64,000 nt of DNA, from assembly GCA_028286605.1 (NCBI GenBank), contig JAQBRE010000002.1:399687-463686 (forward strand), given 5' to 3'. Shown in pieces: positions 2,932-64,000 of the stretch. The translations under genes and the position numbers were made by a program. Each line of letters begins with the position of its first letter. The first letter of the stretch is position 1. Origin of the DNA: Parcubacteria group bacterium (lineage in GTDB: Bacteria; Patescibacteriota; Minisyncoccia; Phycocordibacterales; Phycocordibacteraceae). Under the pieces are notes generated by a model. That model ran no database searches. It was not told the DNA's origin and was given only the letters and a program-made list of their open reading frames with translations.

Positions 2932-3684
2932 ATGAATATCGAGGATCTAACGAAGACTCAGTTGCTCCTCCTCACCATCCTGGTGAACTTTATCGTGTCA
3001 ATCGCCACGGGTGTGCTCGTGATATCCATGCTCGATCAATCGCCTGCGCCTATTACGCAGACCGTGCAGCAGATTGTCGACCACACGATTGAAACGATCT
3101 CTACGCCTATCGCGAGCCCTATCACGGTGAAGCCGTTACCAACAGCTGCAAGCCCGGAGCAGCAACTCACGAGTGCAATCGCTGCAGACAATTCGCGCAC
3201 AGTGCTTATCTACAGGCAAAACGCGACGACATCGCCTGCTCTTGCCTTTGGCGTCTATCTTCCGAAGTCACGCGCCGTTGCAACGACATTCAGTCTTCAG
3301 CTGCCGAAGGAAGTAACTATCATGTTCCCAAATGGCAGCACCGCTGATGCTTCACTTTCAAAGAATGGCGACACGATCGCTATCTATGGATTCTCGGATG
3401 CAGCAACGCTTCCCGCTGCGCCTGCCGCAAGTCCGGTTGCCATCGGCGACCTTATGCAGGGTGAGACAGTAATCGGGCTCACGAAAGATAAAGCCGCCTT
3501 AACCGGCATAATAAGTAAGGTCGATAAAACCGGAATCGTAACGAGCCTTTCCGGCGTGCCAGCGGGCGCGGGTATGGTCGACCTTGCGGGAAATGTAGTT
3601 GGTGTTTCGGCAGGCGATGGAAGGCTCTATTCGACTGATTCCATCATGAGCCTGCTTGAAACGCCGGCCGCTCCCGCACCGTAG
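2932..3684 (+). CDS. Membrane-anchored hypothetical protein. Its C-terminal region weakly resembles a degenerate trypsin-like fold.
   Basis: N-terminal TM helix (LLLLTILVNFIVSIATGVLVI). The C-terminal GETVIGL...GAGMVDLAGNVVGVSAG resembles the S1-protease GxSGGPxxNxxGxVIGInt block but has no GDSGG and no obvious His/Asp/Ser triad. Confidence 0.5.
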   Translation: MNIEDLTKTQLLLLTILVNFIVSIATGVLVISMLDQSPAPITQTVQQIVDHTIETISTPIASPITVKPLPTAASPEQQLTSAIAADNSRTVLIYRQNATTSPALAFGVYLPKSRAVATTFSLQLPKEVTIMFPNGSTADASLSKNGDTIAIYGFSDAATLPAAPAASPVAIGDLMQGETVIGLTKDKAALTGIISKVDKTGIVTSLSGVPAGAGMVDLAGNVVGVSAGDGRLYSTDSIMSLLETPAAPAP

Positions 3685-6764: not shown

Positions 6765-7421
6765 ATGCACTTTAAAAACCATCTTTTGGGCGCCGCAGCC
6801 GCGGTGGCTCTCATGTCGTTCGCCGTTCCGGCGTTCGCCACGGACTACGTCTTCACCGGCACGTCGATGACCAACCCGGACATCGTCAGTGTCGATGGGG
6901 AAGGTGTCTATATGGCGCCGATGGACTTTCAAGGCGTGCAGTCCATCGAGGCTTGGTGTCTCGATGTCACTCACTTCATCAGCCTCGGCGCTCAAAACCC
7001 GGCGCTGGAGTACAACAAGGAGACGCTCACCACGTCCACGATGTTGAACGGCAACCCGTCGTTCGGCGCGCTGCAGATCGGCGAAATCAGCTATCTGATC
7101 AACATTCTCGCTCCGACGCTGGCTCCTGGTCACGCGTTGAATGAGGTGCAGGGCGCCATCTGGGACATCACTCTCGGCGGCGTTGGCCACGTCACTTCCG
7201 GCGATTCTGGAATCCAAGCGGGCATCGACCACTTCGCCACGCTCGGTCTGACCTCGGGCCGCACTGTCATCGGTCTCGAATCCACCGGAATCACTCCGAA
7301 CGTGCAGGACTTCGGGATGGCCGGCGGCGTGCCTGAACCGGCGGCCTGGGCTCTGATGCTCCTCGGCTTCGGCGGCCTCGGCGCTGCGCTTCGGCACCAG
7401 CGGCGAGCGGCGTTCGCCTAA
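6765..7421 (+). CDS. Secreted PEP-CTERM-anchored protein (exosortase substrate type)
   Basis: N-terminal signal peptide MHFKNHLLGAAAAVALMSFAVPAFA. The C-terminus GGVPEPAAWALMLLGFGGLGAALRHQRRAAFA* is a VPEP motif, a hydrophobic helix and an Arg cluster. It uses GC-rich third codon positions. Confidence 0.75.
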   Translation: MHFKNHLLGAAAAVALMSFAVPAFATDYVFTGTSMTNPDIVSVDGEGVYMAPMDFQGVQSIEAWCLDVTHFISLGAQNPALEYNKETLTTSTMLNGNPSFGALQIGEISYLINILAPTLAPGHALNEVQGAIWDITLGGVGHVTSGDSGIQAGIDHFATLGLTSGRTVIGLESTGITPNVQDFGMAGGVPEPAAWALMLLGFGGLGAALRHQRRAAFA

Positions 7422-7572: not shown

Positions 7573-7650
7573 ATGTGGATGATGATTCTGGGATTCAGCA
7601 TGGTTGGAATCATGCTGCGGTATCTAAAGCATAGGAAGCGAGTTTCTTAA
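7573..7650 (+). CDS. Small hydrophobic peptide (25 aa) with a strong Shine-Dalgarno sequence
   Basis: aaggagg lies 7 nt upstream of the ATG. The product MWMMILGFSMVGIMLRYLKHRKRVS is a single TM helix plus a basic tail. It is followed by the hairpin at 7657-7682. Confidence 0.4.
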   Translation: MWMMILGFSMVGIMLRYLKHRKRVS

Positions 7651-7654
7651 TACG

Positions 7655-7688
7655 AAAAGAGGGTCCGGAACGGACCCTCTTTCTTCAT
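7655..7688. terminator. Bidirectional terminator hairpin between the small peptide ORF and the convergent 7702-8799 gene
   Basis: aagagggtccg-gaa-cggaccctctt is a perfect 11-bp stem. It is flanked by A-rich sequence on the left and T-rich sequence on the right. Confidence 0.7.
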
Positions 7689-9710: not shown

Positions 9711-10214
9711 ATGAGCCCCGATGTAGAGAAGGTGAATATCGCTTATATAGATGCTGCAAATCTAGACAGAGCCTTGAAAGATTTAAACTGGAAACTAGAT
9801 TACAAGAAATTTAGAGTCTGGCTTTCTGATAAATATAAAATTGAGCGCGCTTATATTTTCATAGGGTTAATTCCTAAATACAAAGATTTATATACTCATT
9901 TCCAAGAATGCGGATTCACGGTCATCTTCAAGGAGGTGGTGTATCAAGGAGGAGGAATTCCTAAAGGGAACTGCGATACAGATTTAATAATGCAGGCAAT
10001 GGCAGATGCCTATGAAGGAAGCCTTCAAAAGGCACTGATCATTTCCAGTGATGGTGATTACGCCCCGTTAGTTAAGAAATTACAGTCGCGAGAGCAATTC
10101 CTAGCAATACTATCTCCTGCTCCGGCTAAGAAATGTTCGATACTTTTGAAACGAACAGACGCACCCATTGCATATATTAACGATCAACGAGGGCTCCTTG
10201 AGGAGATTAAATAA
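9711..10214 (+). CDS. NYN-domain (LabA-like / PIN-like nuclease) protein
   Basis: VNIAYIDAANLDRA...(D)...LIISSDGDYAPLVKKL follows the NYN/LabA pattern (FIDGxNL ... SGDGDF). The surrounding islet is AT-rich (~35% GC). Confidence 0.65.
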   Translation: MSPDVEKVNIAYIDAANLDRALKDLNWKLDYKKFRVWLSDKYKIERAYIFIGLIPKYKDLYTHFQECGFTVIFKEVVYQGGGIPKGNCDTDLIMQAMADAYEGSLQKALIISSDGDYAPLVKKLQSREQFLAILSPAPAKKCSILLKRTDAPIAYINDQRGLLEEIK

Positions 10215-10384: not shown

Positions 10385-10918
10385 ATGACCTACGCACAAG
10401 CCGAGGCGAAATTTAAGAGCATAAAGACTGCTATTGGAAAATGGTTGGGGATCAAACGGGTAAAGAAACAAATTCACGATCAGGCAACTAAGGATGCTTT
10501 TGCGAAATCAGACCCTGATACAAAGATGAAGCTTATCGGACCCCAACTCGAAATCTTTACTTCATCGGTGTCTAGAAAGTCAGATCTTCTTCCAACTATT
10601 GCTACTCTCGTTGCGGCTCTAATAGTTGTTACTACCCTAAATCATGACCTTGTACCTCTTCGACCTACTGAAACCAAGGCAATTTTAAGCCTCTTCTTAA
10701 TCCTTATTCCGATTACTCTTAATTACTACATAAAAGTAATGGAGCATACGGCAAGGGGAGCTGTCGACATAATCGATTCTTATCAGGGATTCAGTACGTT
10801 CGAAAAAATGGGACCAGTCTCGTTTCTTCAGAGTTTAAGTTCCGAGTTTCCAATAATAATTGTTTATATAATTTATGGTGTCGTTGGATTAATTATATTC
10901 AGAATCTGGTACGGATAA
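10385..10918 (+). CDS. Hypothetical membrane protein (AT-rich islet)
   Basis: 177-aa ORF with three or more hydrophobic helices (LLPTIATLVAALIVVTTL; AILSLFLILIPITLNYYI; FPIIIVYIIYGVVGLIIFRIW). Its AT-rich composition matches the neighbouring NYN gene. Confidence 0.5.
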   Translation: MTYAQAEAKFKSIKTAIGKWLGIKRVKKQIHDQATKDAFAKSDPDTKMKLIGPQLEIFTSSVSRKSDLLPTIATLVAALIVVTTLNHDLVPLRPTETKAILSLFLILIPITLNYYIKVMEHTARGAVDIIDSYQGFSTFEKMGPVSFLQSLSSEFPIIIVYIIYGVVGLIIFRIWYG

Positions 10919-10924
10919 ATAAAT

Positions 10925-10998
10925 TGGCGGGCCCACGAGGAATCGAACCTCGGCCGACGGTTTTGGAGACCGACGTTCTACCATTAAACTATAGGCCC
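10925..10998 (-). tRNA. tRNA-Trp (anticodon CCA), with CCA encoded
   Basis: The reverse complement GGGCCTATAGTTTAATGGTAGAACGTCGGTCTCCAAAACCGTCGGCCGAGGTTCGATTCCTCGTGGGCCCGCCA folds as a cloverleaf: 7-bp acceptor stem, T-arm CGAGG-TTCGATT-CCTCG, and anticodon loop CTCCAAA. Confidence 0.88.
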
Positions 10999-15044: not shown

Positions 15045-15431
15045 ATGGAAGATTTTGATTCATGGAACAAGTCCAAAAAACTGGATTACAGTAACTCTAA
15101 ACCGGAAGTATTTCCAAAAGCAGGAGAAGTTTGGTTAACCGTTCTTGGAAAGAACATTGGATACGAACAGAATGGAGTGACCGATAGATTTATTAGACCT
15201 TGTCTCATTGTTAAGAAATTTAATAATGGGATGTTTTGGGTGGTTCCACTCTCAAGTAAGCAAAAGAAATTTAATTTCTATTTTAATTTTCTTGATCCAA
15301 ATGGGTTACCTGTGTCTGCGATACTTGCCCAATTAAGAATGATAAGTAGCAAGCGCTTTTCAAAGCGTTTGTATAGTATGGATATCAAAACGTACCTTCG
15401 AATTAAGGGCAGACTAAAATCGTTTTTATAA
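15045..15431 (+). CDS. PemK/MazF-family toxin-like protein (mRNA interferase fold), apparently solitary
   Basis: FPKAGEVWLTVLGKNIGYEQNGVTDRFIRPCLIVKK...FWVVPLSSK follows the PemK/MazF pattern (GE[IV]W..D...G.EQ.G.RP.L[IV]V......VVPLTS). The islet is AT-rich. No antitoxin-sized ORF lies upstream. Confidence 0.6.
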   Translation: MEDFDSWNKSKKLDYSNSKPEVFPKAGEVWLTVLGKNIGYEQNGVTDRFIRPCLIVKKFNNGMFWVVPLSSKQKKFNFYFNFLDPNGLPVSAILAQLRMISSKRFSKRLYSMDIKTYLRIKGRLKSFL

Positions 15432-15462: not shown

Positions 15463-15595
15463 GTTGGAGTCCACAATGGACACTTTGGCTATGGATCCCT
15501 AATTAATAGAAATCTCCCGGAGCCCACGAGGGCGCTGTCGCGAACCGGAGCTCGCTTGTGGCCATTATATCAAATCTGTTTTTTGAGTCTAGCAG

Positions 15596-15676
15596 TGCCG
15601 GGGGAGGGACTCGAACCCTCAAGCCTTGCGGCAGAGGGTTTTGAATCCTCCGCGTATACCATTCCGCCACCCCGGC
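15596..15676 (-). tRNA. tRNA-Leu (anticodon CAA); CCA not encoded
   Basis: The reverse complement GCCGGGGTGGCGGAATGGTATACGCGGAGGATTCAAAACCCTCTGCCGCAAGGCTTGAGGGTTCGAGTCCCTCCCCCGGCA has a 7-bp acceptor stem, anticodon loop TTCAAAA, an ~11-nt variable arm, and the T-arm GAGGG-TTCGAGT-CCCTC. Confidence 0.85.
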
Positions 15677-26975: not shown

Positions 26976-27713
26976 ATGAGTAAAGATCGAAAACAAGTAG
27001 CGATACGAATGCGTAAAGAAGGTAAAACCTATAGTGAAATTTGTAATGAACTTACTATTGCCAAATCAACTCTCTCACTCTGGTTACGAGCTGTGGAATT
27101 ATCCAAACCTCAAGAGCAGAGAATAACTGAAAAGCGTACCCAAGCAGCTGCACGAGGAGGAAAAGCACGCCACGATACTCGCATAAAGGAGATCGAGTAT
27201 TCAAATATCGCTGGGATAGAAAGTATCGGCAAGCTAACCCCGCGCGAATTGTGGCTTATCGGTATTGCCCTTCATTGGGCCGAGGGTTCAAAACAGAATG
27301 AACGCTCACTAAGTGCAGGCATCGTGTTTAGTAATTCCGACTATCGAATGGTCCAGGTCTTTCTGTTGTGGTTAGGTCTATTTAAAGTACTCGATGAGGA
27401 CATTATCTTTGAATTATATGTACACGCCAGTAGAAAAGAGGAAATAGAATTATTCAAAGGGTGGTGGTCCGAAAGACTTGCAGTTCCGATTGAAAATCTT
27501 TCCCGTATATATTTAAAGCAAGGAAATCCTCAGACAAGACGCACGAATACAGAAGACTTGTATCATGGCCTCATCCGCATTAAAGTTAAAAAGAGCACCG
27601 CGATGAATCGCAATATACAGGGCCTGATTCATGGCATTGCAACTCAATTGGGGAGTGGTGTAATTGGTAACACGTCTGCCTTTGAAGCAGAAGACTCTAG
27701 GATCGTACCCTAG
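26976..27713 (+). CDS. HTH-domain protein with a LAGLIDADG-like motif (possible free-standing homing-endonuclease-like gene) in an AT-rich insert
   Basis: N-terminal HTH (RMRKEGKTYSEICNELTIAKSTLSLWLR). The downstream ELWLIGIALHWAEGSK resembles the LAGLIDADG / LxGxxxG(D/E)GS motif. Local GC is about 40%. Confidence 0.45.
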   Translation: MSKDRKQVAIRMRKEGKTYSEICNELTIAKSTLSLWLRAVELSKPQEQRITEKRTQAAARGGKARHDTRIKEIEYSNIAGIESIGKLTPRELWLIGIALHWAEGSKQNERSLSAGIVFSNSDYRMVQVFLLWLGLFKVLDEDIIFELYVHASRKEEIELFKGWWSERLAVPIENLSRIYLKQGNPQTRRTNTEDLYHGLIRIKVKKSTAMNRNIQGLIHGIATQLGSGVIGNTSAFEAEDSRIVP

Positions 27714-27765
27714 CTCCCCAGCATCTATAACCAGCATTCGATCTCCAGTCTCCCAGCAATAAAAT

Positions 27766-57939: not shown

Positions 57940-59193
57940 ATGCAGCGCGAAGACCTAAAAAAATTTGAGCTTCCTGACGTTCCTGGCGTCTATCTGTTCA
58001 CGCAGGGCAAAGGTAAGTCCAAAAAGATTCTATACGTGGGGAAGGCGACTTCCCTGCGTGATCGCGTGCGCTCCTATTTCGATATCGAGCTCATCGCGAC
58101 CCGCGGTCCGCGTATCGTAGATATGGTCACGCAGGCAGACGGCCTGATGCATGAGACCACGCCAACCGTGCTGGAGGCGCTCGTGCGCGAAGCCGCACTT
58201 ATTCGTGAATATGATCCGCCGGCGAACACGCTGGGCAAAGACGGGAAGTCATTCCTGTATGCCGTCATTACAGACGAAGAGATTCCACGCGTTCTTGCGA
58301 TACGCGGCAAGGATATTGATTTTGAAAACATGCGTGCGAACGGTTTCAAGCTGAAGCATACTTACGGGCCGTTTCCTTCCGGTTATCAGCTGCGCGAAGC
58401 ACTGCGTCTGATCCGTCGCATCTTCCCGTTCTATGACACGCCGAAGCCTGTGGGCGAAGGGAATAAGCATCTGCAAGCGAAGGTTGAGTTCAACCGGCAG
58501 ATAGGTCAGTATCCGCGTGATATGAGTCAGAGCCAATACATGCGCTCCATACGCAACGTTGGCTATTTCCTTTCCGGCCGCGTGAAAGCACTGCGCACCG
58601 TCCTTACGAAAGAAATGAAAGACTCTGCAAAGAAGGAAGAATTCGAAGAGGCGGGCATAATTCGCAGACAGCTTTTCGCGCTGGATCATGTGCAGGATGT
58701 TTCTCTTATTAAAGATGAACGAAACGAAGACAAAGAGGCGCCGCGCATCGAAGCGTATGACACGGCGCACCTTTCTGGTACCAATGCTATCGGCGTTATG
58801 ACGGTGGTAGAGAACGGCCTCATCATGAAGCGCGAATATCGCACGTTTAAGATTCAGGGTCGTGGTGGCAAGTCCACGAATGATGACATCGCGTCGCTAA
58901 AAGAGATCCTCACACGCCGTTTGGGGCATCCAGAATGGCCGCTACCGCGCGCAATCGTCGTAGACGGCGGGAAGACGCACAAGAAGGCTGCAGAAGAAGT
59001 CTTGAAGCAGTATGAAATAGGTATTCCTGTGGCTGCGGTGGTTAAGGATGAGAAGCACCGTCCACGCGAAGTGATCGGCGCGATGCGCGCCGGCATCACC
59101 GAAGCAGACGCAGTCCTTGCTAATAGCGAAGCGCATCGATTCTCCATAACGCTCCACCGCAAGGCCCGCAACAAGACCATGCGTTCGGCATAA
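57940..59193 (+). CDS. uvrC: Short UvrC-like excinuclease (GIY-YIG + RNase H-like endonuclease domain; lacks the UVR and HhH regions)
   Basis: GIY-YIG: LPDVPGVYLFTQGKGKSKKILYVGKATSLRDRVRSYF. C-terminal UvrC endonuclease-domain-like AIVVDGGKTHKKAA...GIPVAAVVKDEKH. It has only 417 aa. Confidence 0.65.
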   Translation: MQREDLKKFELPDVPGVYLFTQGKGKSKKILYVGKATSLRDRVRSYFDIELIATRGPRIVDMVTQADGLMHETTPTVLEALVREAALIREYDPPANTLGKDGKSFLYAVITDEEIPRVLAIRGKDIDFENMRANGFKLKHTYGPFPSGYQLREALRLIRRIFPFYDTPKPVGEGNKHLQAKVEFNRQIGQYPRDMSQSQYMRSIRNVGYFLSGRVKALRTVLTKEMKDSAKKEEFEEAGIIRRQLFALDHVQDVSLIKDERNEDKEAPRIEAYDTAHLSGTNAIGVMTVVENGLIMKREYRTFKIQGRGGKSTNDDIASLKEILTRRLGHPEWPLPRAIVVDGGKTHKKAAEEVLKQYEIGIPVAAVVKDEKHRPREVIGAMRAGITEADAVLANSEAHRFSITLHRKARNKTMRSA

Positions 59194-59344: not shown

Positions 59345-59380
59345 ATAAACCATCCTCTTCGGGGGATGGTTTATTTATTT
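59345..59380. terminator. Bidirectional terminator after the uvrC-like gene and the convergent 59371-59835 gene. The region may also mark the 3' end of a small RNA (59220-59345).
   Basis: aaaccatcc-tcttcggg-ggatggttt + tttatttc. Upstream lie ttgact (-35-like) and the palindrome atacgttt-tc-aaacgtat. Confidence 0.55.
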
Positions 59381-59835
59381 CTTGCAGTTTTAAAATGAAT
59401 CGAACAAATTTCTGCAGAGTCGTGTTTTTCATCTAATAATATCCGAAGCTGAGGATAGTCTTTTGCTGAATAATCCTTAGTATAGAAATGACCGACAGGT
59501 GTTCGTGTTCTGTCTTCTTCATACAGTTCGTAATCTGTAATAGTCTCCTGGAGATGTTCAAGTGCAAACAATATTCGCCCGAACACCTCTTCCTCAGGAT
59601 GGCGCTTCATAAGATCAACTTTCCGCTCCTCAACGAAATGCTTTAATGATTTGCGACTGATATATACCCGTGTTCCTTTACGTGGATGTTTTTCATGCCT
59701 TGAGCCACGAATATCAAATATTCGCAGTAATTCTAGTGGACGCTCAATTAACTCGCCGTATTCCATATCAAAATACTCGCGTGCAAGTGCTTTGATTGTT
59801 CCGATTCTTCTTGGAATGCTGGCAGGTTCATTCAT
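59371..59835 (-). CDS. Hypothetical protein (154 aa) in an AT-rich segment
   Basis: ORF only. About 40% GC against a ~53% background. Confidence 0.45.
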   Translation of the reverse strand: MNEPASIPRRIGTIKALAREYFDMEYGELIERPLELLRIFDIRGSRHEKHPRKGTRVYISRKSLKHFVEERKVDLMKRHPEEEVFGRILFALEHLQETITDYELYEEDRTRTPVGHFYTKDYSAKDYPQLRILLDEKHDSAEICSIHFKTARNK

Positions 59836-60302: not shown

Positions 60303-61286
60303 ATGCGTGGCACCGTTGTTGGAGTATTGCGTGGCGGTCCGTCGCGCGAGCATGAGGTTTCGCTTGCGAGCGGGCATGCGATTATTGCGAACCTTCCGAA
60401 AGATCGCTTCACCGTTCGTGACATTTATATAGACAAGCAGGGAGCCTGGCACGAACGTGGCCGTCCTATCACGCCGGATCGCGCACTGCATTCCGTAGAT
60501 GTCGTCGTTATCGGTTTGCATGGCGAATACGGAGAAGACGGCGAGGTGCAGAAACTTTTGGAGAAATACGGTGTGCCATACACCGGCTCAGGTTCATTCG
60601 CTTCGTTCGTAGCGATGCATAAGGTGATGTCTAAGGAGAAGGCGAAAGATGCGGGCCTGCTCACTCCTGAGTATCGATACATCGAAGAGAGCACGAACAA
60701 CATCGAAATGGAAAAGATGCTGCGCGATGTGGTGCGAACCTTCCCGCAGCCCGTGGTGGTGAAGCCGACGCGCTGGGGCTCATCAGTGGGCGTTACGCTC
60801 ACCACGGGCTATGCACCGCTCCACACGGCTGTTACAGGCCTTCTTAGGCAAGGTTCCGGCGGTGTACTGGTGGAGGAATACATAAAAGGAACTGAGGCAA
60901 CCGCGGGCGTCGTGGAAGGGCTTCGAGGCGAAGCCCTGTATGCGCTTCCGCCCATCGAAATCCTCCCACCTGAATCAGACTTCTTCTCGTATGACGCCAA
61001 GTATTCGGGCTCCTCGAAAGAGATCGTCCCGGGCCGCTTCACGAAACAGGTGACGGATGAGCTGATGCGCCAGGCGCGCCTCATGCATGAGGCGCTCGAG
61101 CTGCGCCACTACTCACGCTCTGATTTCATCATCACGCCCAAAGGCATCTATTATCTGGAGACTAATTCGCTTCCGGGCCTCACCGGCGAATCGCTCCTGC
61201 CTAAGTCCCTGGCTGCGGTGGGCGTGTCCTTCGGGGAATTCTTATCCCATATAATTGACCTTGCACGGACAGGAAAGAAACGGTAA
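60303..61286 (+). CDS. ddl: D-alanine--D-alanine ligase
   Basis: VLRGGPSREHEVSLASG, VIGLHGEYGEDGEVQKLLE, the ATP-grasp motifs, and the C-terminal YLETNSLPGLT. Confidence 0.9.
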   Translation: MRGTVVGVLRGGPSREHEVSLASGHAIIANLPKDRFTVRDIYIDKQGAWHERGRPITPDRALHSVDVVVIGLHGEYGEDGEVQKLLEKYGVPYTGSGSFASFVAMHKVMSKEKAKDAGLLTPEYRYIEESTNNIEMEKMLRDVVRTFPQPVVVKPTRWGSSVGVTLTTGYAPLHTAVTGLLRQGSGGVLVEEYIKGTEATAGVVEGLRGEALYALPPIEILPPESDFFSYDAKYSGSSKEIVPGRFTKQVTDELMRQARLMHEALELRHYSRSDFIITPKGIYYLETNSLPGLTGESLLPKSLAAVGVSFGEFLSHIIDLARTGKKR

Positions 61287-61338
61287 AGTTCCAAATACGG
61301 GCCGTTAGCTGCTTGGTGGCCCGTTACGAAATTCACAA

Positions 61339-61411
61339 GGGCCGTTAGCTCAGTTGGTAGAGCGCTTCATTTGCAATGAAGATGTCGCAGGTTCGAATCC
61401 TGTACGGTCCA
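61339..61411 (+). tRNA. tRNA-Ala (anticodon UGC) with the G3:U70 identity pair
   Basis: GGGCCGTTAGCTCAGTTGGTAGAGCGCTTCATTTGCAATGAAGATGTCGCAGGTTCGAATCCTGTACGGTCCA. Anticodon loop TTTGCAA and T-arm GCAGG-TTCGAAT-CCTGT. Confidence 0.9.
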
Positions 61412-61470
61412 CCCCATAAAAACTCAATTTGTCACGGCTGCCCCTGCACCAGATATGACGCATTACTCCC

Positions 61471-62403
61471 ATGTTGTTGGATAACGAACTTGTAACACAT
61501 GGGGTAGGCTATATCCGAGATTTTAAGGTAATTGACCAAGACTCAGATATAGAACTTATTCCCGGTCTGCAGATACTCGGACCAGCTGCAAGAGACGATA
61601 TTAATGAGTATCTAACTGAACTAGAGTCAACAACAGGTATATCCCGTCCTCAAAACGGTCGCTTCATACTCTATACACTTGATAAAAAGCGCTCATTGGA
61701 ATGGCCATTTGAGTTCCAGCAAATGCTCTGGGATTTTATCCTTGTTCTAAGAATTTTTGCTGGCGGCACAGCCCATTCTTATGGCGTCATATACTATGAT
61801 CTCGATTCATCCCCCGTAACCTATTATCCTGGTTATCTGGGTGATGCGGATTCCGTCAGATCCAGTAGCGCAAATATTAAAATGGAGGATTTGCCGCAAC
61901 TGGCTCAGACATATGAGCGCCTATCCGCAATAAAACCACTAATAGACATAAGTTCAGAATCGTTTTCACGATTGAGAAACGCTCTCCGGTTTTTTGATCA
62001 GGCCTACACAACAAACTGGTATTTGATGAAGATTGTTTTACTTTTTATTTGTCTAGAAAGTCTATTTTCTGATCGAGACGACAAGACTGATATATCGTAT
62101 AAGGTTCGGCTTCGAGCCACACGCTTTCTTACTGACGATGTGGAAGAGAGAAAAGATATATTCGAAAATCTTAAAATCGCATACGACTTTAGAAGCTCTA
62201 TTCTCCATGGTGACAATTTTGCTCGCAAGCAAGAACGGAAACTTAAGAATGGAGAATCTTGGGATTACTATCCAAGTTTTCTAGAAAACATTGCAAGACG
62301 CATCTTGCTGAAGATGCTGAGTGATCAGGAACTTTACAACCACTTTTCCAGGAAGACTACAGACAAAGAGGATAGCAACTTCTTTTCAAATCTTGTCCTG
62401 TAA
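61471..62403 (+). CDS. Abi-like protein with a C-terminal HEPN-type Rx4H motif (putative abortive-infection / defense nuclease), in an AT-rich islet next to tRNA-Ala
   Basis: 310 aa at ~40% GC. C-terminal helical region LRNALRFFDQAY...LESLFSD...YDFRSSILHGDNF contains R-x4-H. Predicted cytoplasmic. Confidence 0.5.
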   Translation: MLLDNELVTHGVGYIRDFKVIDQDSDIELIPGLQILGPAARDDINEYLTELESTTGISRPQNGRFILYTLDKKRSLEWPFEFQQMLWDFILVLRIFAGGTAHSYGVIYYDLDSSPVTYYPGYLGDADSVRSSSANIKMEDLPQLAQTYERLSAIKPLIDISSESFSRLRNALRFFDQAYTTNWYLMKIVLLFICLESLFSDRDDKTDISYKVRLRATRFLTDDVEERKDIFENLKIAYDFRSSILHGDNFARKQERKLKNGESWDYYPSFLENIARRILLKMLSDQELYNHFSRKTTDKEDSNFFSNLVL

Positions 62404-62608
62404 ATACTTACTGAGCTGGCGCCTTTCACTCCCGATTCGCACTACTATTGGAAGCTAGGTTGCCTTGCCGGTATCCTTCCCATACCAGTCCTTCTTCAAC
62501 CGCCTCACCCTCCGCTCCCAGTTGAGAGACAGCAAATTACGCAGTAGACACAAACTTTACTGTGCAGCCGTCTTAAAACTTAGAGTTTTAGAGGGGTATA
62601 CTTTCCCT

Positions 62609-62935
62609 ATGAAAGTCCTCGCGCTTATTCTCGCGATTCTTGCCATTGTTTGTTGGTTCGCTATTGGGAATCCGAAGAATGATATTGCGTCGGTAGTGTG
62701 GGCAAATTCGCCTGCACCATGGGAAAGCGTGACTGGATTCTATTATCCGGACAAGAGTGATCTATCTGATAATCCGCAGACACAGGATTCTGGCACGCTT
62801 GGGAACTGTCGTGATTGGGCTGCGATTACGATTACTGCAAGCGTTGATCCGACAGGTCAAAGCAGTACGTATGCGTGCGGAATATCGTGCGCAAATCCGA
62901 AGGATGCGTCTTCATGCCGTTTGCTTGTTAAATAG
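62609..62935 (+). CDS. Small secreted Cys-containing hypothetical protein
   Basis: Signal/TM MKVLALILAILAIVCWFAIG and several Cys (CRDW, YACGISC, SSC). gaggggTATACT sits 6 nt upstream of the ATG. The ORF-track start at 62465 is rejected. Confidence 0.5.
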   Translation: MKVLALILAILAIVCWFAIGNPKNDIASVVWANSPAPWESVTGFYYPDKSDLSDNPQTQDSGTLGNCRDWAAITITASVDPTGQSSTYACGISCANPKDASSCRLLVK

Positions 62936-62937
62936 AT

Positions 62938-63354
62938 ATGAATGAAGGACCTTCGAAGAAACCGAAAGAAGCCGTACTGGCTTCGATGGAACCAGAAGAA
63001 GAGAAACAGCCCGATCCTACGGATGCCGTTGTGATTATAACTGCGACCATTCAGGAAAGAATGGATATCCTTCCTGTTCCTGCAAAGCGCGCTGTTGCAC
63101 AGGTGGAGGCCGCATATAAAAGTCTTTTGCATGTACGTGCGTATCGAGGAGACGTAAGCGCTGCATACGCCGTGTACGTTCAGGCAGCGAAGAATCTTCT
63201 TGCAGAACATTCTCTTTGGAAAGCTATGGAAACGATGTACGCACCTGAATCAATCGAGCATCTTCGCACGTTGCTAGAGACGAATATCGAGCGGCTCACC
63301 ACGGTCATGTTCGAGGATTATGTTATTCCCGTAGACAAAGGCCCTCTTCAGTAA
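62938..63354 (+). CDS. Hypothetical protein (138 aa)
   Basis: ORF only. Acidic and helical. Confidence 0.45.
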   Translation: MNEGPSKKPKEAVLASMEPEEEKQPDPTDAVVIITATIQERMDILPVPAKRAVAQVEAAYKSLLHVRAYRGDVSAAYAVYVQAAKNLLAEHSLWKAMETMYAPESIEHLRTLLETNIERLTTVMFEDYVIPVDKGPLQ

Positions 63355-64000
63355 CTATTTGCCTTGTCCGTAATACTTCTTTAGGAGCGCGACGTGCTCG
63401 GTGTATGTTTTCGTGCAGTGGAAGTTGCCGTTCTGATCATGGAAATAGAAGAGACAGTCCGTCTTCTTCGGGTTGAGTGCAGCCACTACTGATGCTATAG
63501 AAGGATTCGCGATAGGGCCCGGCGGCAAACCGCCATTCATGTACGTGTTGTACGCAGACTTTATATATTTATCCTTCGGCACCACCTGCGGCCACCAGAT
63601 TCCCGTCTTGCCAGTTGTTGCGTTCGCCTTTGCATATTGAAGGGTGGCATCGATCTGAAGCGGCATACCGGCGAAGATACGATTCCAGATAACGCCTGAG
63701 ATATCGCGTGCATCGTCCCATCCCCCAGATTCTCGCTCAATGAGCGATGCAACCGTCATAGCATCCGCGATCGGCACCTGCTCTTCCGTGGTGGTGCTGT
63801 AGCGGGAAAGAACATCGTCCTGGAAACGGCTGTTAAGGAGCGATACAACGTCAGCGGGTTCGGTAACGCTTAGGAAATAGGTGCCAGGGGTGAACTGGCC
63901 ATCAGGAAGGCCTTTATCTTTTTCTGAGGCATGCGCGTCTTTCAGAAATGTCGCTATCTGTGCAGGTTTCCAATCAAGCGTGCCACCGATTGCGGCAGCC
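63355..64000 (-). CDS. mltG: Endolytic murein transglycosylase MltG (YceG-like), partial; N-terminus lies beyond the window end
   Basis: ESGGWDDARDISGVIWNRIFAGMPLQIDATLQYA...YNTYMNGGLPPGPIANPSIASVVAALNP...YLFYFHD matches the YceG/MltG catalytic region. The minus-strand reading frame stays open to position 64000. Confidence 0.82.
   Translation of the reverse strand, partial: AAAIGGTLDWKPAQIATFLKDAHASEKDKGLPDGQFTPGTYFLSVTEPADVVSLLNSRFQDDVLSRYSTTTEEQVPIADAMTVASLIERESGGWDDARDISGVIWNRIFAGMPLQIDATLQYAKANATTGKTGIWWPQVVPKDKYIKSAYNTYMNGGLPPGPIANPSIASVVAALNPKKTDCLFYFHDQNGNFHCTKTYTEHVALLKKYYGQGK

Follow-up and report, generated by a model that had tools for sequence, protein, structure and literature searches.

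A tRNA-Ala-linked gene for a probable two-domain HEPN endoribonuclease in a Parcubacteria-group genome

Introduction

The signature of HEPN ribonucleases is Rx4-6H, in which the arginine is followed by a polar residue, together with a second conserved acidic residue that typically lies in an Ex3[KR] context (PMC3710099). For single-protein HEPN defence with an N-terminal sensor, ApeA is the experimental precedent (10.64898/2026.01.26.701840), in which ligand sensing leads to the cleavage of tRNA anticodon loops or phage RNA (10.64898/2026.01.26.701840; 10.64898/2026.03.20.713152). DUF4145 (PF13643), another HEPN family, has been connected with restriction-modification and defence systems (PMC3710099). 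Here we describe ORF310, an open reading frame (ORF) of 310 codons located directly behind tRNA-Ala(UGC) in a Parcubacteria-group metagenome-assembled genome. The DNA analysed, hereafter the window, is a stretch of 64,000 nucleotides (GCA_028286605.1, contig JAQBRE010000002.1, positions 399,687 to 463,686). On balance, ORF310 probably came in by horizontal transfer as a solo gene and cargo of a tRNA-Ala hot spot; it would encode a two-domain HEPN endoribonuclease that acts like abortive-infection (Abi) proteins.

Bacteria of the candidate phyla radiation have tiny genomes and are thought to hold few recognisable defence systems. A sequence-only reading of the window had drawn attention to the locus as an AT-rich islet at a tRNA integration hot spot with an Abi-like first gene, and its claims are taken up below together with the results that bear on them.

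Results

Fold, motif and family of ORF310

The exact protein is found at NCBI as hypothetical protein JWM39_551, encoded on a contig of 532 kb. An AlphaFold2 model built from 123 sequences reached a predicted local distance difference test (pLDDT) of 92.2, after an earlier model from 3 sequences had been unusable (pLDDT 37). It divides the protein into an N-terminal alpha/beta domain (residues 1-137) and a C-terminal helical domain (residues 138-310), the latter modelled as the up-down four-helix bundle that characterises the HEPN fold. The C-terminal domain carries the FRSSILHG sequence that had been pointed out from the DNA, with R241-x4-H246 encoded at 62191-62208. In the 123-sequence alignment (A4), R241, H246, G247 and E196 are invariant, with S242, Y238 and R215 nearly so. 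E196, R241 and H246 are invariant or nearly so in the alignments of 34, 111 and 123 sequences, and G247 in those of 34 and 123. The family therefore shows Rx4-6H with a polar residue following the arginine, and the 310-residue protein with a C-terminal helical domain and HEPN signature stands as proposed.

Close relatives are few. A word-indexed search of 5.8 billion proteins led to two (46% and 52% identity), and exhaustive HMMER searching with a 3-sequence profile gave 2918 proteins at E <= 1e-3 and 124 at E <= 1e-10. About 30 of the profile matches align over the full length, the others only over the C-terminal 150 residues, which are found beneath differing N-termini; the full-length family is rare, in clusters of 1-2 members. 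Among 111 distant relatives one matches HEPN_Apea at 4.8e-4 (sub-threshold), and one relative matches HEPN_RiboL-PSP. Plasmid and chromosomal relatives are labelled 'HEPN domain-containing protein' by NCBI, and NCBIfam and Pfam scans of relatives so labelled returned no model. These matches and labels agree with the similarity to HEPN proteins at the level of the fold, where the best structural matches of ORF310 include HepT-type HEPN toxins. The PDB sequence library, searched with the family profiles A1 and A2, gave nothing meaningful, and the sole library match of ORF310 itself is a weak one to phrog_28161 (5e-4), a PHROG without known function. We consider the assignment to HEPN sound; ORF310 lies outside every curated HEPN family, and its N-terminal domain is unclassified.

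Foreign composition and absence from relatives

Averaged over 300 nucleotides, GC falls from 0.55-0.59 in ddl to 0.38-0.43 across 61450-62350, returns to 0.46-0.49 over the two following reading frames, ORF108 and ORF138, and reaches 0.51-0.55 in mltG. ORF310 has a GC of 0.404 and a third-position GC (GC3) of 0.379, compared with 0.563 and 0.634 for ddl. Against the window (mean 0.520, standard deviation 0.037) its GC corresponds to z = -3.09, and values as low are reached in just 0.3% of 933-nucleotide segments of the window. ORF108 (GC 0.483) and ORF138 (GC 0.484) are intermediate, so of the AT-rich islet assigned to 61289-62940 the drop to about 0.40 behind the tRNA was confirmed, whereas the strongly AT-rich part is ORF310 alone.

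As a comparison set we used 80 related loci, obtained by a Ddl-protein scan with one genome per species and a Ddl identity from 83% down to 47% (loci are given as L numbers). The adjacency of uvrC and ddl is near-universal among them, and in most ddl is followed by tRNA-Ala(UGC). Relatives of ORF310, ORF108 or ORF138 were found in 0/80 of these loci. DNA similarity to relatives ends at the tRNA and restarts precisely with the stop codon of mltG at 63355 (L024, L020, L023 and L029), and therefore the variable region spans 61414-63354. Among relatives, tRNA-Ala and mltG are separated by about 0.6 to 5.5 kb of unrelated content. The islet thus combines foreign composition (z = -3.1) with presence/absence variation across the 80 relatives, the slot differing in L008, L009, L012 and L093, as is characteristic of a genomic island.

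Cargo turnover at the tRNA-Ala slot

In the two closest relatives, L008 and L009, tRNA-Ala is interrupted after about position 43 (L008 7024-8536 and 11268-12002; L009 7024-10388), and no intact tRNA was detected within 6 kb. L008 encodes a large serine recombinase of 494 amino acids (Resolvase, Recombinase and Zn_ribbon_recom domains) whose stop codon lies in the tRNA anticodon arm, and a HEPN_AbiV gene (2.7e-19) is part of the island that follows; among the locus and its relatives a recombinase was seen only here. In L093 a DUF4145 (HEPN) gene sits between tRNA-Ala and a small conserved gene. Three unrelated HEPN-type genes therefore occur at the same tRNA in three related genomes (ORF310, AbiV in L008 and DUF4145 in L093). 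Displaced classical tRNA-Ala fragments are present in several relatives, as in L067, where positions 43-76 lie 740 nucleotides downstream.

The cargo reading frames of L009 are bracketed by the same two motifs as ORF310, which we call L and R. The L motif is 88% identical to L009 8660-8701 and 82.5% to 7641-7680 (blastn) and precedes two L009 cassettes. The R core has 94% identity to two L009 copies and 86% to L012, while the DNA of ddl and uvrC is only 74-78% identical to that of L009. A scan of IMG/VR for the R core gave no match. R was considered as an element end and rejected, as it is the 3' end of the small conserved gene: the remnant holds the last approximately 20 conserved codons (NWERRVRRLKKDWYGK), in an open frame, of a minus-strand gene of about 60 codons. 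The intact gene is convergent with the cargo in L012 and L093 and bounds the slot in relatives; its products fall into nine protein clusters (P0155-P0163) with the consensus C-terminus ...NPGHxAIRRINWERRVKRLKKDWYGK and stop. Since ORF108 and ORF138 lie past the R remnant, are intermediate in GC and were never seen alongside homologues of ORF310, they probably represent a separate acquisition.

As an observation in its own right, the family of about 60 residues (P0155-P0163, ...AIRRINWERRVKRLKKDWYGK) has no known domain and lies downstream of tRNA-Ala in several Parcubacteria (L012 8459-8644, L093 5001-5186). In every case a decayed 3' half of tRNA-Ala, in reverse complement, lies ahead of the gene when read on the gene's own strand.

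The tRNA 5' duplication

The first 12 nucleotides of tRNA-Ala, GGGCCGTTAGCT, are present twice and exactly (61299-61310 and 61339-61350), with a gap of 28 nucleotides between both copies; a 12-nucleotide repeat is expected by chance at about 6e-6 in the 100 nucleotides upstream of the tRNA. This duplication had been noted from the sequence as part of a hairpin at 61289-61316. The repeat is indeed exact and its upstream copy lies in the 5' arm of a hairpin, which is placed 8 bases further right (Table 1). With -14.7 kcal/mol (z = -1.4) the fold is equalled by 17/200 shuffles and hence not unusually stable. Among about 65 other ddl-linked tRNA-Ala loci only L060 and L067 have similar tRNA 5' fragments. 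A 5' fragment occurs in both tRNA-linked loci of the ORF310 family (Fisher p = 0.003, with the second locus, L001, at another tRNA and hence outside the base-rate set); in L001 a 30-nucleotide exact copy of the tRNA-Arg 5' part lies upstream. Integration on the 3' side of a tRNA leaves no 5' fragment upstream, and ordinary integration therefore does not account for the duplication, which is probably a recombination scar of uncertain origin. The 5' fragment with its spacer, in L001 and in the window, was also considered as a tRNA intron or other known RNA and dismissed, as Rfam finds tRNAs only.

Separately, tRNA-Ala(UGC) is ringed by exact partial copies of itself in L067 (1701-2594) and L060 (4220-4488), with positions 1-21 upstream and 19-74 and 43-76 downstream. 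The intact tRNA gene of L067 is flanked by short inverted repeats. These copies are scars of repeated recombination at tRNA-Ala.

Context of the family in other genomes

The nearest homologues of ORF310 (46-52% identity) are found in unrelated contexts, and the coding sequence alone is common to the loci. The closest, in L001, is of low GC compared with its surroundings and lies 108 nucleotides after tRNA-Arg; around it two collinear 10-mers are all that resembles an att repeat, a weak indication. Several more distant family members stand beside defence genes or mobile DNA. Those in L004 and L005 adjoin an EcoRI-type methylase, GmrSD and a DndB-like gene, and that in L091 belongs to an integrase-bounded island with Shedu SduA_C and an AAA_15/21 ATPase. 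Further members are located near CTD1/MComp1 conflict-system genes (L092) and near a resolvase and a caspase-like peptidase (L090), and one adjoins a phage integrase and an HNH gene (L088).

Layout of the locus

The features of the locus are collected in Table 1. A promoter and terminator scan before and after ORF310 gave nothing above shuffle expectation. No terminator separates tRNA-Ala from ORF310, where relatives have a strong hairpin after the tRNA, and therefore ORF310 could possibly be transcribed by read-through from the tRNA promoter, as judged from the sequence. The two further reading frames reported behind ORF310 are both present. ORF108 is preceded by a promoter-like site (62573-62602) and has a hydrophobic N-terminus and five cysteines, which makes it a putative secreted protein; neither it nor ORF138 had any family match in Pfam, NCBIfam, PADLOC or PHROGs.

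Table 1. Positions of features at the ORF310 locus, numbered from the first nucleotide of the window
Feature	Position	Strand	Remarks
uvrC	57940-59193	+	
Low-GC orphan	59371-59835	-	
ddl (D-Ala-D-Ala ligase)	60303-61286	+	conserved left anchor; Pfam Dala_Dala_lig_C 3.2e-35, Dala_Dala_lig_N 5.4e-25
Hairpin between ddl and tRNA	61297-61324	+	
tRNA-Ala(UGC), intact	61339-61413	+	ARAGORN; Rfam RF00005, 73.1 bits
L motif	61405-61446	+	last 9 nucleotides of the tRNA and 33 nucleotides of flank; blastn vs L009
ORF310	61471-62403	+	310 amino acids, two-domain protein
N-terminal alpha/beta domain	61471-61881	+	predicted, AlphaFold2 model
C-terminal HEPN domain	61882-62400	+	predicted, AlphaFold2 model
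E196 codon	62056-62058	+	
R241-S-S-I-L-H246-G247 codons	62191-62211	+	Rx4H catalytic motif of HEPN RNases
R remnant of small gene	62455-62556	-	conserved core 62472-62525
ORF108	62609-62935	+	small protein, strain-specific
ORF138	62938-63354	+	hypothetical protein, strain-specific; starts 2 nucleotides past the ORF108 stop
mltG/YceG, 3' part	63355-64000	-	conserved right anchor, continues beyond the window; Pfam YceG 4.1e-44

Three side observations concern the surroundings. First, the low-GC (0.394) orphan of 154 amino acids fills a 1.1-kb gap between uvrC and ddl, which are directly adjacent in many relatives without such a gap; it gave only a weak LAGLIDADG_3 match (E = 0.023) and has no homologue in the 80 relatives. 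Second, every tRNA gene of the window adjoins a low-GC solo gene. A gene with an NYN domain (GC 0.395, PF01936 5.6e-14) and an orphan (GC 0.39) lie by tRNA-Trp (10925-10998) at 9711-10214 and 10385-10918, a PemK/MazF-like toxin gene (15045-15431, GC 0.346, PF02452 1.9e-8) lies by tRNA-Leu (15595-15676), and an HTH_23 gene (26976-27713, GC 0.427) runs into tRNA-Gln (27649-27722). The acquisition of RNase- or toxin-type genes beside tRNAs appears to be general in this genome.

Third, many relatives have a conserved element of 130-190 nucleotides after tRNA-Ala(UGC) and its terminator (L014 about 7126-7264, L039 about 7146-7268, L001 about 3327-3450), and it is found just after this tRNA also in L047, L050, L057, L058, L016, L023, L073, L082 and L084. 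Its ends form a helix of about 17 bp that copies the acceptor stem (including G3:U70) and the 3' strand of the T-arm of the tRNA-Ala of its own genome, and its core reads GCGAGCCGGGGUCG(A/C)GAG-hairpin-CUCGUGACC. Compensatory changes were seen at 13/21 predicted pairs. The element has neither a counterpart in the window nor a match in Rfam; it could be a tRNA-like RNA not described before or a conserved structure of the att type.

Discussion

From the modelled fold, the conserved motif, the foreign composition, the absence from relatives, the changing cargo behind the tRNA and the defence islands in which several more distant family members lie, ORF310 is probably a one-protein anti-phage or toxin gene of an uncurated family. 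Its four-helix HEPN domain, with R241 and H246 as the likely catalytic pair and the invariant E196, would dimerise to a composite, metal-independent RNase site cutting cellular or phage RNA, by analogy with characterised HEPN enzymes. The unclassified alpha/beta domain may hold the protein off until an infection signal arrives, and the outcome would be either an abortive-infection-like defence or a toxin-like growth arrest. The slot between tRNA-Ala(UGC) and the small minus-strand gene would repeatedly receive cargo by site-specific recombination at the tRNA, with the mobility functions and the distal att repeat presumably lost at this locus to leave a single-gene cassette of about 1.1 kb. The proposal of tRNA-Ala as an integration hot spot agrees well with the L008 recombinase ending in the tRNA, the AbiV gene behind it and the DUF4145 gene in the L093 slot. 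The other expectations of the sequence-only reading fared similarly: tRNA-Ala(UGC) was located upstream of ORF310 by both ARAGORN and Rfam, the composition fell across the region (0.38-0.43; z = -3.1 for ORF310), and the locus comparison found the slot variable and ORF310, ORF108 and ORF138 missing from all 80 relatives. The protein has the HEPN fold and motif and the region is conserved neither in composition nor in synteny; the Abi-like character is right in substance, with a defence activity that is suggested by analogy.

Several observations weigh against this assignment. ORF310 is unmatched in Pfam (E <= 1), NCBIfam and PADLOC (E <= 1), where no curated defence, Abi or HEPN model was hit, so the search for Abi_2, HEPN and Apea models that had been recommended came back empty and the attribution to AbiD, AbiF or AbiU2 types was not upheld. 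Foldseek against PDB and BFVD gave nothing at E < 0.2, so the similarity to HEPN proteins is remote and at the level of the fold, and the N-terminal domain remains unclassified. The invariant E196 is part of LESLF, with serine instead of lysine or arginine at the +4 position, and thus lies outside the usual Ex3[KR] context. For mobility, no recombinase or integrase domain was found by Pfam in ORF310, ORF108 or ORF138, a downstream copy of at least 12 nucleotides of the tRNA 3' part is absent, the 19-nucleotide tRNA 3' end has no second site with <= 3 mismatches anywhere in the window, and no att-type direct repeat flanks ORF310 in the window. The route of insertion is therefore read from the relatives only, and we read the islet of the window as a decayed or non-autonomous cassette. 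Finally, a full-length relative of 343 amino acids (L096 1808-2839) lies on the same strand between rpsJ (S10) and rplC (L3) in an otherwise canonical S10 operon, and another member (L006) follows a class I aminoacyl-tRNA synthetase gene. As some members occupy such housekeeping contexts, the link of the family to defence and mobile DNA is frequent, not universal.

Alternatively, ORF310 might be an active HEPN toxin serving mobile DNA, as an addiction or selfish module or as a member of a toxin-antitoxin pair that has lost its partner or in which the partner went unrecognised. HepT-type toxins are among its top structural matches, low-GC toxin-like solo genes (PemK/MazF-like, NYN) lie beside other tRNAs of the window, and the fact that only the coding sequence is common between loci suggests a selfish unit of gene size. 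We nevertheless consider this unlikely, since the window, L001 and L002 all lack an MNT or other antitoxin-like neighbour, the protein possesses an N-terminal domain of 137 residues as in self-regulated single-protein effectors, and several relatives reside in defence islands.

Slightly less likely still is a decaying or non-functional orphan, that is, remnant cargo in a degraded islet, unexpressed or inactive. The reading frame is intact and of full length compared with its homologues, keeps all invariant family residues and folds confidently in the model, and read-through into it may occur as no terminator follows tRNA-Ala. Decay would fit the missing recombinase and distal att site, the neighbouring small gene reduced to a 3' fragment, the lack of a promoter-like site ahead of ORF310 and the rarity of the full-length family in clusters of 1-2 members.

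A phage or mobile-element gene acting on the host or on competing elements, by host shut-off or anti-defence, was considered because of the weak match to phrog_28161 (5e-4) and of distant relatives on a Klebsiella phage-plasmid and beside integrases. It appears quite improbable, as tblastn of ORF310 against 50,697 phage genomes gave no match, a pattern scan of IMG/VR for the protein found none, and Pfam detected no phage genes in the islet. That ORF310 is a HEPN enzyme of housekeeping RNA processing (Las1-like or tRNA-related), placed near translation genes for its function, is very improbable given its absence from all 80 close relatives, foreign composition and rare, patchy occurrence, and most neighbours in small Parcubacteria genomes are housekeeping genes anyway.

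We retain ORF310 as probable cargo at tRNA-Ala that would encode an Abi-like HEPN endoribonuclease. A wider interpretation is tentative and in our view doubtful as a whole: the uncurated family, with an alpha/beta sensor joined to HEPN, might represent a self-contained, infection-triggered RNase of ultra-small Parcubacteria, and the tRNA-Ala slot a lineage-wide exchange point at which unrelated HEPN genes of this family, of DUF4145 and of AbiV replace one another, moved in trans by a serine recombinase that works on the tRNA. The locus suggests that part of the defence repertoire of the candidate phyla radiation may hide in families missed by curated libraries. tRNA-Ala together with the small conserved gene makes a compact and comparable hot spot with differing HEPN genes, which form a natural candidate set for studying how single-protein HEPN effectors sense infection, and a new HEPN family model could be built from the alignment of 123 sequences.

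Comparison with known systems

Islander-type tRNA islands and their decayed, non-autonomous derivatives resemble the islet in its position directly 3' of a tRNA, foreign composition, variability among relatives and defence-type cargo, and both a recombinase and displaced tRNA fragments occur at this tRNA in relatives. Unlike such islands, the islet has neither an integrase nor a displaced 3' fragment and is small, with about 1.1 kb for the ORF310 cassette and 1.9 kb for the whole variable region, and the L008 enzyme is a large serine recombinase instead of a tyrosine integrase. An integron cassette was rejected, as the window has no IntI integrase and its boundaries, L from a tRNA flank and R from the small gene's 3' end, are not imperfect palindromes of the attC type.

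Among HEPN proteins, ORF310 matches none of the hidden Markov models for AbiD/AbiF (Abi_2, PF07751), AbiU2, AbiJ and AbiV, and hhalign of the family profile with the AbiV protein of L008 (probability 0.1%) or with ORF245 of L009 found no relationship. A member of DUF4145 holds the equivalent slot after tRNA-Ala in L093, but ORF310 has no Pfam match and hhalign with the L093 protein found nothing. HEPN-MNT (HepT/MntA) toxins have about 130 amino acids and an adjacent MNT antitoxin, whereas ORF310 has an additional N-terminal domain of 137 residues, and no neighbour with a nucleotidyltransferase domain occurs beside it (tRNA, ORF108, ORF138) or in L001 and L002.

ApeA (PF18739) likewise unites a non-catalytic N-terminal region and a C-terminal HEPN domain with Rx4H in one polypeptide and occurs in defence islands. 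With about 580 amino acids, a helical N domain, a Mid domain and a split HEPN domain it differs from the 310 residues and compact alpha/beta domain of ORF310, which matches neither HEPN_Apea nor the PADLOC ApeA model and has no sequence match to any solved chain. ORF310 is therefore not an ApeA; it is a new family-level form of a well-known kind of gene, not a new kind.

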